Positions 33,001-36,000 of a stretch of 64,000 nucleotides of DNA are shown here, piece after piece (position 1 is the stretch's first letter; each line of letters opens with the position of its first letter). The position numbers were made by a program. The stretch is taken from positions 254,570 through 318,569 of the forward strand of contig NC_133912.1 of NCBI RefSeq assembly GCF_964199755.1, in the 5' to 3' direction. This DNA comes from Larus michahellis. Its lineage: Eukaryota.

Positions 33001-36000
33001 GGTGATGGGCCAGACCTACATGCTGACGGAGTCTGAGGAGCTGTGGGAGAAGGAGCTGCCCCCCGGGGTGGAGGCGCTGCTGGCCGCAGCCCGTGGAGAC
33101 ATCCGCGGCATGGACATCGGTGTCCAGTCTTTCTCCGTCCTGGACGCTGGGGTCCCCCAACGTGACTGCACCCGCGCTATCACCTACCAGGTGCCCCACA
33201 ATGCCGCCGTGCAGGTCTACGACTACCGGGAGCGGCGGGCACGGTGAGCACCCGTGGTTCTGGGCGCGGGGGAGAAGGGACGTGGCAGGGCATGGAGGAC
33301 ATAGTGGATGTACGGGGGGTGTGGGAGGAGGATGTGGGGATGGAGGGGACACTGAGGAGGGTGCTGGGCACCAGGGTGCAGGTGATGTTGCTGTGACCCC
33401 TGTGCCATGGTGTGTCCTTGGCGTGTGACCAGTGTCTTTGGCATGTCTGTGGCCGGCTGATGCTGGGCCCAGCGCTGGCGGTGCTGGGCCCCGGGGAGCA
33501 GCTGACGGTGTGGGGACTGGTGCTTCCTTGGCATGTGACCCATGTCCTTCACGTGTTTTTGGCATGTTGCAGAGTGGTGCTGGGTGTAGAGTTGGTCGTG
33601 TAGGGCCCTGGGAAGCAAGTGACAGTGCAGGGACTCTTGTGTCACGGTATATCCTTGGCTTCAGTACAAGTCACGCTGGGGATCCCAGGCTCCAGAGACC
33701 AGGGGGAGAGTCTGGAGCGAAGAAGATGGGACGCAACTACGAGTGTTGAAGGAGCTGGCTGATGTCATTAAGAGGACACTCGATAATCTTTGATCAATCA
33801 TGGCAACTGGGACAAGTGTCCGAAGATGGGAAAGGTCACCCTCATCTTCCAGAAGGGCAAGAAGGAGGACCCAGGGAACTACAGGCCGCTCAGCCTCGCC
33901 TCGATCCCTGGGAAGGTGATGGAGCAGCTCATCCTAGAAACCATTTCCAGGCATGTGAAGGACAAGATCATCAGGAGCTGTCAGCGTGAATTCACCAAGG
34001 GCAAGTGATGTTTGACCAATCTGATGAACATCTCTGATGAAATGCCTGGGTCTGTAGATGGAGAGCGGTGGCTATTGTCTACTCAGACTTCAGGAAGTCC
34101 TTCGACACTGTCTCCCACAAGATCTTCATAGAGAAGCTGATGAAGTTTGGGCTGGATGAGCAGCGAGGGGCACTGAAAACTGTCTGAATGGCCAGGCCCA
34201 GAGCGTGGTGATCAGTGGCACGAGCTCTAGTTGGAGGACAGTAGCTAGTGGTGTACCCCAGGGGTGAATACTGGGTCCAGTCCTGTTTAACACCTTCATT
34301 ACTGAGCTGGACGATGGGGCAGAGGGTACCCTCAGCAAGTTCGCAGAGGACACCTGAGACACCAGAGTCAGGCAGCCATCCTGAGGGACCTCAACAGGCT
34401 GGAGAAACGGGCTGACAGGAACCTCATGAAGACCAACAAGTGGAAGTGCAAAGTCCTGCCCCTGGGGAGGGACAACCCCGTGCACCGGTATATGCTGGGG
34501 GCTGAATGGCTGGAAAGCACCTCGGCAGAAAAGGACCTGGGGTCCTGATGGACACCAAGCTGGTGGCAAAGGTGGCAAATGGTGTCCTGGGCTGCGTTAG
34601 GGGTGTTCCCAGGAGGTGGGGGACCTCATCCTTCCCCTCAGCACTGGTGAGGCCCCACCTGGAGTGCTGTGTCCAGTGCTGGGCTCCCCAGTACAAGACA
34701 GACACGGACACACCAAAGAAAGCTCACAAAGATGAAGGGACTGGAGCATCTCTTCTACAAGGAAAGGCTGAGAGAGCTGGGACTGTTCAGCCTGGAGAAG
34801 AGAAGGCTCTGGGGGATCTTATCAATGTATATAAATACCTGACGGTCGGGTGCAGAGAGGACAGTGACAGGACCAGAGGCAACAGGCACAAACTGGAGGT
34901 TCCCTCTAAACACCAGGAAACACTTTCACTGTGAGGGGGACCGAGCACCGGCACAGGTTGCCCACGGAAGTGGTGGAATCTCCATCCTTGGAGATATTTG
35001 CAACCCTGACTAGATGCGGTCCTGAGCAGCCAGCTCCAGGTGGCCCTGCTTGACCAGGGAGGTTGGACAAGATGGTCTTCAGAGGTCCCTCCCCACCTCA
35101 CCCATACTGTGCTGCTGCAATACGTCCTTGGCCTGTCTTTGTCTTGTGAGCTTCGTCCTTGGCACATGTCCGTTGCTATGTCACAAGGTGGTGTTGGGCA
35201 CCCACATGTCACAGCATGTCCTTGGCCCGGCAGGGTGGCTCAGAGCCACCGCGGAGCAGGTGATGGTGCTGGGCCCAGCATGTGGTGGCTTGTCCTTGGC
35301 CTCCTCCTGGTCCCCTCCTGTGCAGGGTGGTGCCCCCGACATGTCACCCATGCCCTTGACACGCTCTCGTCCTGTCACAGGGTGGTGCTGGGCCCCGAGC
35401 TGGTGGTGCTGGGCCCCGGGGAGCAGCTGACAGTCCTGTCCCTCTCAGCGGGGCGCCCCAAGCGTCCCCACGCCCGCCGCAGCCTCTGCCTCCGCCTGGG
35501 GCCCGACTTCTGCACTGACATCGTCACCATCGAGACGGCCGACCACGCCCGCCTCCAGCTCCAGCTGGCCTACAACTGGTGGGCGGGGCTCGGGGGCGAG
35601 GCTTGGGGTGGGAGGGGCAGGGCTAGGGCAAGGGGCGGGAACAGATTTGGGGCGGGGCAGGACTGGGCTGTGGGGACAGTGGTCAAACTGGGGGTGTGGC
35701 CTGGGTCTTGGGGCGTGGTCAGACATTGTGGGTGGGGCTAGAGGGAGGGGGTGTGGCTTGGGCATTTGGGGCGTGGTCTGTGTGGGTGGGGCTACTCAAG
35801 GGGGCGTGGTCTGGGTCTTTGGGGCGTGGTCATGCACTGTGGCCGGGCTATGCAAGGGGGTGTGGTCTTGGTGACGTGGTCATGCAGCATGGGCAGGGCT
35901 ACTCAAGTGGGTGTGGCCTGGGCATTGGGGGCGTGGTCAGTGTGGGTGGGGCTAGACGGAAGGTGTGCCCTCAGTGTTGGGGGTGTGGTCATGCTGTGTG

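Follow-up and report, generated by a model that had tools for sequence, protein, structure and literature searches.

How does the intron in front of a conserved exon come to resemble the exon itself? The question is raised by the gene for the major vault protein (MVP) in a 64,000-nucleotide stretch of the Larus michahellis genome (assembly GCF_964199755.1, contig NC_133912.1, positions 254,570 to 318,569 of the forward strand), referred to below as the window, in which one haplotype is represented. As a preliminary description of this sequence proposed, the intron upstream of the MVP exon that begins VVLGPELV holds tandem copies of the exon's own 5′ end together with its 3′ splice site, and a CR1 retroposon lies inside the array. 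The reading advanced here, at a probability of about 85%, is that the intron is an old relic of serial tandem duplications straddling the 3′ splice site of this one exon; the array is most likely without function.

The window contains a complete MVP gene on the + strand (~26669-38410), recovered by tblastn as at least 15 colinear segments with a human MVP sequence that served as a probe only. The exon upstream of the intron (…HNAAVQVYDYRERRA; …YDYRERRA) covers human MVP amino acids 397-483, ends in phase 2 at 33244 with the donor cacg/gtgagc, and has orthologs in open reading frames (ORFs) that contain Vault_4/Vault_3. Splicing joins cg to G across the intron and yields the frame RVVLGPEL; when the end of the upstream exon is joined to the downstream exon, the product matches Pfam Vault_3 (E-value 8.9e-25) and MVP_shoulder (E 2e-10). 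Database relatives of the downstream exon are MVP fragments of birds, mammals, and fishes, and a homologue search found its start, VV(L/F)GPELV..LGP.EQ, kept in mammals and fishes. The exon start is hence ancient, so the intron copies derive from the exon, and the last copy in the array spans the working acceptor, in agreement with the origin at the exon boundary that had been proposed. The copied part is the first 54 nt of the exon (35381-35434). This segment holds an internal 21-nt repeat (GGTGGTGCTGGGCCCCG, twice), which leaves some ambiguity of register within the array. The whole intron is made up of ~55 nt of unique 5′ sequence, a decayed tandem array of ~620 nt, and ~1465 nt of CR1.

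Two copies are the best preserved. With the last unit (35290-35445) as the BLAST query against the whole window, positions 33447-33509 match 35372-35434 (E 7e-16; 86% over 63 nt by repeat finding), and positions 33532-33626 match 35340-35434 (74% over 95 nt; E 1.6e-11), a pair that repeat finding reports as 33532-33637 against 35340-35445 (72% over 106 nt). Outside the intron, no BLAST match to the last unit anywhere in the window is better than E 0.09. The exon part of the first of these copies, designated UA, is identical to the exon at 46 of 52 positions and gives a local alignment score of 79, against 18.8 ± 2.9 (maximum 32) in 500 dinucleotide-preserving shuffles, or z = 21. A profile hidden Markov model built from three units and run on both strands of the whole window returned two further matches at E < 0.3, at 35138-35275 (8e-7) and 33360-33402 (0.004), and both fall inside the intron.

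These copies are arranged head to tail on the same strand, at offsets of 110-120 and 237, including across the CR1. A windowed dot-plot, the check that had been suggested to separate real units from mere GC similarity, gave diagonals at offsets 110, 117, 120, 237, 1808, 1878, 1925, and 2045. Each unit opens with the 8-mer TCCTTGGC, which occurs 11 times in the window against 4.7 expected, with seven of the 11 on the + strand inside the intron, and in the unit alignment several motifs keep the same order in every unit. Identity of the units to the true boundary is ~60-88%, and their lengths range over 74-168 bp. The period of roughly 85 bp first suggested was not borne out, as the two best units measure 110 and 127 bp and the best autocorrelation lags, with the CR1 excised, are 346, 237, and 120. 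The copy reported at 33470-33505 is real, with 33 of 36 positions matching 35395-35430 at offset 1925, but only 11 of 36 match in the register originally quoted; the accompanying count of 30 of 36 is reproduced in our own count for 33480-33515 against 35405-35440, so that the intron coordinate was off by 10. Short inverted repeats between the pseudo-exon and the exon (I1-I6, 70-100% complementary) were set aside, being explained by a GGGCCC palindrome, and an Rfam scan of 32000-37500 at E values up to 1 gave zero matches.

Table. Coordinates of the MVP exons, the intron, and the units and retroposon within it (positions in the window)
Feature	Position	Strand	Description
Upstream MVP exon	32993..33244	+	ORF runs to a stop at the donor; 5′ limit approximate
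Intron	33245..35380	+	2136 nt; donor GT at 33245, acceptor cacag/G at 35380/35381
U0	33300..33414	+	Most degenerate copy; dot-plot offsets 120 and 2045, profile E 0.004
UA	33415..33524	+	110 nt; TCCTTGGC sub-repeats, then pseudo-exon 1 at 33457-33509
UB	33525..33651	+	127 nt; D3 repeat family, 74% over 95 nt
CR1 LINE (long interspersed nuclear element) fragment	~33652/33660..35122	+ (sense to MVP)	5′-truncated in ORF2; stops, frameshifts
UD + UE	35123..35292	+	Read by the profile as a single unit with insertions; E 8e-7
UF	35293..35434	+	Last unit; spans the true acceptor into exon base 35434
UF1	35293..35340	+	Truncated copy; strong pyrimidine tract, pseudo-acceptor AG ending 35325; absent from L001
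UF2	35341..35380	+	Branch-point-like CCTTGAC, pyrimidine tract, true acceptor
MVP exon (VVLGPELV… to LQLAYNW)	35381..35578	+	198 nt; end of Vault_3 and start of the shoulder domain

The units differ in how much of the splice site they preserve. In U0 only an exon-like part at ~33356-33402 (GGTGCTGGGCACCAGGGTGCAGGTGATG…) is recognizable, and UA has lost its acceptor AG (ggccgg). In UB, the branch-point-like CCTTCAC and the tract gtgtttttggcatgttgcag are still present ahead of an AG (33571-33572), and the sequence beyond it, pseudo-exon 2, translates as RVVLGVELVV before a stop ends the frame at 10 codons. Beyond the CR1, UD and UE have TCCTTGGC starts at 35125, 35156, and 35219, along with pseudo-acceptors whose AG has its G at 35187, 35233, and 35259. 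The units end in …(GTCAC)GGTATA, GCATG, or GCTTG and pass directly into the next TCCTTGGC. The unit alignment places no donor at the homologous position in any intron copy. With neither a matching donor nor an intact ORF, the copies are therefore no candidates for mutually exclusive or alternative exons, and tandem exon duplication was rejected as a description of the array, with 54 of the 198 exon nt copied.

The element interrupting the array is an ordinary CR1. Its DNA aligns with independent CR1 copies of Mycteria americana and Grus japonensis, its translation contains reverse transcriptase (RT) motifs and eleven stops in one frame, and it matches bird and turtle CR1/jockey-like ORF2 proteins at E 1e-43 and, after frameshift correction, RVT_1 at E 4.7e-23. 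Homology begins at …FFASVF… of ORF2, ~50 codons before the RT domain, indicating 5′ truncation. The 5′ limit was taken from an alignment of the locus and its orthologues with the Mycteria and Grus copies and could fall anywhere within 33652-33660, since TCCTTGGC and the CR1 sequence TTCTTTGCC overlap there. CR1 elements end in an octamer microsatellite, (ATTCTRTG)n (PMC4316615); here the tail is a degenerate octamer repeat (ATACTGTGCTGCTGCAATA), reading ATACTGTG CTGCTG… in the window and clean in the orthologous contig L001 (ATTCTGTGGTTCTGTG), which is the basis for a 3′ limit at ~35122. The element is thus somewhat longer than the 33690-35080 first assigned to it, while its position in the array, with units on both sides, was correctly recognized. 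A unit junction of the type GGTATA followed by TCCTTGGC flanks the CR1, which places the element between units of one continuous array. The 8-mer itself lies at both flanks (33652-33659 and 35125-35132); since it is also the unit-start motif and overlaps the CR1 5′ end, the flanking pair may represent a target-site duplication, microhomology at the junction, or merely the unit motif, and such a duplication is optional for CR1. Like other CR1 insertions in avian introns (PMC4316615), this one has a 5′-truncated ORF2, an RT domain, and an octamer tail, and two lineages have it at one and the same position, as would be expected of a retroposon marker (PMC4316615); only its landing place, the array, sets it apart. 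Matches of a junction ORF (33632-33790) to WD40-repeat proteins were spurious and caused by RVWSEEDGTQLRVL. Approximately 50 nt near 33728, present in the orthologous sequences of Rissa tridactyla and L021, are missing from the CR1 of the window.

Orthologous DNA was reached through exon-sized ORFs in public assemblies and in Logan and ENA contigs, and it falls into three lineages. Lineage A comprises the window, Rissa tridactyla (GCA_028500815.1; L014), and contig L021, all with U0, UA, UB, and the 5′ part of the CR1. The window and Rissa are 94.7% identical over 738 nt and differ across the three upstream units by substitutions only. The presence of the same structure in an independent Rissa assembly and in Logan contigs rules out an assembly artifact. 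Lineage B is represented by two sets of contigs, of which L015-L020 contain U0 and UA and then a different inserted element, and L001-L010 have the 3′ end of the CR1 in the identical position, beyond which come UD, UE, and the true acceptor. In alignable intron sequence the window and L015 are only 72-77% identical, which makes the split between A and B deep. Lineage C consists of L011, L012, L013, L022, and L023. Its one contig that crosses the entire intron is L011, where the intron measures ~800 nt and both the array and the CR1 are absent; the 5′ portion of this intron is matched by L022 and L023, and the acceptor and exon by L012 and L013. L011 carries CCCTTGGCCTC, which matches the unit-start motif, ~50 nt upstream of its acceptor.

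The age of the duplications follows from how the copies group. For UA, the copies of four species have derived bases in common (CTGATG…CCCAG) and cluster separately from the exons, and UB copies likewise group by orthology across species, so the duplications are older than the A/B split. The comparison with orthologous introns that had been called for thus dates the amplification to before that split. No general concerted evolution was seen among the UA and UB copies compared across species. UA even retains GACGGT, the exon state in L001 and L011, where the window's own exon now reads GACAGT. Some turnover has taken place at the scale of units: contigs L001-L010 are without 54 nt that the window has (35287-35340, a unit fragment carrying the AG that ends at 35325), and L021 has an extra 12-nt sub-repeat.

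The orthologous sequences have three further features. The element that follows UA in lineage B (L015:7080-7165) reads …tgggtttaaccctggtaggc…cccccagtgggatgggggagagaatcggaaaggtaa, and all contigs end inside it; it bears a tentative resemblance to an avian long terminal repeat-type element. From L014:10880 onward, Rissa matches the window at ~95% until mid-CR1 and then continues into unrelated sequence, a likely assembly collapse or misjoin at the CR1, and the NCBI annotation of the Rissa locus holds only an 80-amino-acid "major vault protein-like" fragment. The intron of lineage C is AT-richer and has its own short tandem repeats resembling GGATTCTAGG (L011:1130-1760, L022:660-1000, and L023:540-880).

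The history that most likely accounts for this structure begins with a short ancestral intron, in which a segment of ~110-130 bp straddling the acceptor would have been duplicated serially by unequal exchange or replication slippage. Each unit would have consisted of the last ~50-70 nt of the intron, with a sub-repeat of TCCTTGGC/CATGTC type, a branch-point-like motif, a pyrimidine tract, and an AG, together with the first ~54 nt of the exon, and the intron would have grown in this way to ~670 nt. Only the most downstream copy leads on into the rest of the exon, 144 nt in length, and the donor behind it, and that copy would have stayed the working acceptor as the upstream copies drifted neutrally, losing AGs and gaining stops and indels. 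Later, a 5′-truncated CR1 would have inserted between two units in the sense orientation, giving the intron its length of 2136 nt. The duplications and the insertion are both older than the split of the window's lineage, near Rissa, from at least one deeply diverged bird lineage. The homology of the units to the exon boundary, their tandem order, the nature and place of the CR1, the orthology across species, and the lack of extra conservation were observed directly; the mechanism, the order of events, and neutrality are what we infer.

The state of the pseudo-acceptors fits this history. An AG followed by GGTG(G/C)TG occurs with its G at 33359, 33572, 35187, 35233, 35259, and 35325, which bears out the several pseudo-acceptors described earlier. 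Counting all sites of the AG plus GGTG type there are eight in the intron, seven of which run into a stop within 1-25 codons. Conservation of the exon-like part of UA does not exceed that of its flanks, at 49/53 versus 42/42 in Rissa, 46/53 versus 40/42 in L021, and 41/53 versus 63/88 in L015. Taken with the loss of an AG, the stops, and indels on the scale of units, this absence of extra conservation points to neutral decay of the upstream copies, and the pseudo-acceptors are probably silent for the most part or would yield substrates of nonsense-mediated decay (NMD).

Several observations weigh against this account. The copies to the right of the CR1 score only 29-33 against a shuffle maximum of 29-30, and because these copies and U0 are weak individually, neither the number of units (five to seven) nor the length of the original unit is certain. 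Use of the AG that ends at 35233 would give an in-frame, stop-free exon extension of 49 codons, and the silence of the pseudo-acceptors is an assumption of the account. UA of the window has CCCCGGGG, like its own exon, and three other species have CCCCAGGG (CGGGG versus CAGGG), a hint of exchange between units and not pure decay; the difference is at a hypermutable CpG, for which parallel decay is an equally good explanation. Acceptor variants TCACAG and TTGCAG are discordant between UB and the true acceptor among species, with TCACAG at the true site (35374-35380) and TTGCAG in UB (33566-33572) in the window, TCACAG in UB of L021 (~775), and TTGCAG at the true acceptors of L001 (~352) and L011, which may be a trace of exchange between units. 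The protein identity matrix of the short upstream exon does not fix the branching order of A, B, and C, and lineage C could have lost the array instead of preserving an ancestral condition without it. Finally, the assignment of the L015 and L001 contig sets to one species is only suggested, by a shared run-accession series.

An alternative, though an improbable one, is that the array is a functional element, in which pseudo-acceptors and pseudo-exons acting as decoys, poison exons, or alternative starts would be under selection and would tune MVP output through intron retention or NMD. Decoy exons reportedly regulate intron retention in human cells (Parra and colleagues, 2018), and the locus offers some of the required parts: UB has the full arrangement of branch point, pyrimidine tract, and AG, the AG at 35325 lies behind a better tract than the true acceptor (pyrimidine fraction 0.80 versus 0.65), the 35233 site is stop-free in frame, and the array persists across deeply diverged lineages. 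Yet the pseudo-exon shows no conservation beyond that of its flanks, the UA AG is lost in all species seen, the strong 35325 site, which in any case leads to a stop after 11 codons, lies inside the 54-nt segment missing from L001, one whole bird lineage (C) is without the array, and seven of the eight pseudo-sites give early stops. In a specific and decidedly doubtful form of this idea, the array would be a bank of decoy 3′ splice sites that sequesters U2AF/U2 and routes some MVP pre-mRNA into NMD or intron retention, and some copies would stay competitive through occasional exchange with the true boundary of the exon. Such a bank, if real, would be a lineage-specific, duplication-born regulator of vault abundance.

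It is very unlikely that the array is instead an active hypervariable minisatellite, still expanding and contracting and homogenized by gene conversion with the exon. Unit-scale indels of 54 nt and 12 nt between lineages, the CGGGG of the window's UA, the TCACAG/TTGCAG swap, and the genuine minisatellites in other MVP introns would fit such activity. Against it, the units are only 60-88% alike and go undetected by Tandem Repeats Finder (TRF), UA and UB group by orthology and not by species, which is the opposite of concerted evolution, the three upstream units of the window and Rissa differ by substitutions only, and the CG/CA difference can be explained by parallel decay at the CpG. The term minisatellite, which had been applied to the array, accordingly overstates it, the copies being also common to lineages ~25% diverged at intron sites.

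Chance likeness between a GC-rich, low-complexity intron and a GC-rich exon start, with no duplication at all, is scarcely credible. The region is 62-67% GC and words like GGTGCTGGGC are common, with 35 in the window at one mismatch or fewer; TRF detected no array of period 85-120 bp on the native sequence, a lenient run detected no long-period array in the CR1-excised intron, and the autocorrelation peaks are weak (z ≤ 4). Such likeness is refuted by the E values of the two best copies against the whole window, by z = 21 against shuffles that preserve dinucleotides, and by the confinement of profile matches to the intron, and it sits poorly with the fixed order of motifs in the units and with copies that are orthologous in other species. 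A transposable-element origin, with the unit taken from a dispersed repeat or the CR1 and the exon start arising by an old exonization, has next to nothing in its favor beyond the overlap of TCCTTGGC at 33652 with the start of CR1 homology (CR1 TTCTTTGCCTCAGT versus locus TCCTTGGCTTCAGT), which means that this single copy of the 8-mer could be CR1 sequence, and it founders on searches of the window and of 20 kb of Rissa outside MVP that turned up no other unit copy, on an exon start conserved from fishes to mammals, which rules out recent exonization, and on independent CR1 copies that share only the 8-nt overlap with the units.

Serial duplication across a splice junction has known parallels. 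In the human genes F7, IFI6 (6-16), CBS, LMNB2, and PDGF, the end monomer of a minisatellite spans the exon-intron boundary and reiterates the splice site, with monomers of 37 bp in intervening sequence 7 (IVS7) of F7 and 12 bp in intron 2 of IFI6/6-16, and with the CBS array in IVS13; most of these genes splice exclusively at the authentic site, the one that adjoins the exon (PMC1557585). The claim that an exon-boundary-derived repeat of this kind is unusual was therefore too strong. The MVP array shares with the F7/IFI6 type its tandem intronic repeats and an end unit that holds the authentic junction, and differs in lying on the acceptor side, where those cases are all donor-side (PMC1557585), in the ~54 nt of exon per unit against 4 nt in F7, and in being decayed, irregular, CR1-interrupted, and common to deeply diverged species where those monomers are near-identical and polymorphic in copy number. 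It is the acceptor-side counterpart of the donor-side boundary-spanning minisatellites. A search of the accessible literature found no acceptor-side precedent, which is no proof that none exists.

Two further comparisons can be drawn. The array resembles tandem exon duplication in that a local duplication leaves exon-like copies in the adjoining intron; tandem exon duplication and intronic pseudo-exons are said to have been treated by Kondrashov and Koonin in 2001 and by Letunic, Copley, and Bork in 2002. It also resembles the cis-competition constructs with duplicated 3′ splice sites that Reed and Maniatis reportedly made in 1986, in which the length of the adjoining exon is said to influence the choice of site. 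Several equivalent acceptors face one donor in both, and the constructs offer a rationale for the copy with the full exon winning, with the difference that they are artificial and the competing copies in MVP are already degenerate.

The locus suggests that several-fold growth of an intron can come from repeated duplication of the segment around its splice junction, and that a conserved gene can carry the resulting copies undisrupted for tens of millions of years. It might serve as a natural model of 3′ splice-site selection, if transcripts were examined, and the shared CR1 and unit indels are usable as presence/absence markers for bird phylogeny. What is known of MVP or of splicing is unchanged by the array.

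Other repeats occur in the same gene. At 37002-37067, a 21-bp tandem repeat (CCAGGTCACCTCATGTCCCCC, 3.3 copies) has a first unit that spans the donor CCAG/GTCC closing the MVP exon that ends at ~37006, with a pseudo-donor, CCAG/GTTC, ~60 nt downstream, making a small donor-side arrangement like that of F7 IVS7 within MVP. Tandem arrays also lie elsewhere in MVP introns or upstream, at 26300-26487 (92 bp), 28969-29101 (62 bp), and 32215-32293 (41 bp). Because MVP holds ordinary intronic arrays as well as this donor-spanning repeat, boundary-proximal slippage seems to be common in this GC-rich gene. The next MVP intron (35579-36329, 751 nt) is nearly all a G-rich minisatellite of ~52 bp (GGGGCGTGGTCA…GTGGGTGGGGCTA), situated at 35692-36063, whose unit resembles the donor-proximal GTGGGCGGGGCT; an origin of this minisatellite from the exon or donor is not supported, the only matches being weak and G-rich (E ≥ 0.009) and confined to sequence outside the exon. 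The motif CATGTC[AC]C, part of the sub-repeat of the array and not specific to it, occurs 29 times in the window against 6.5 expected, with 22 occurrences on the + strand in or just upstream of MVP (24698-37380) and clusters in several introns, for example at 37011-37380 and 31118-31259. A C-rich intron at 32228-32940 translates as repeated PSQC-like ORFs.

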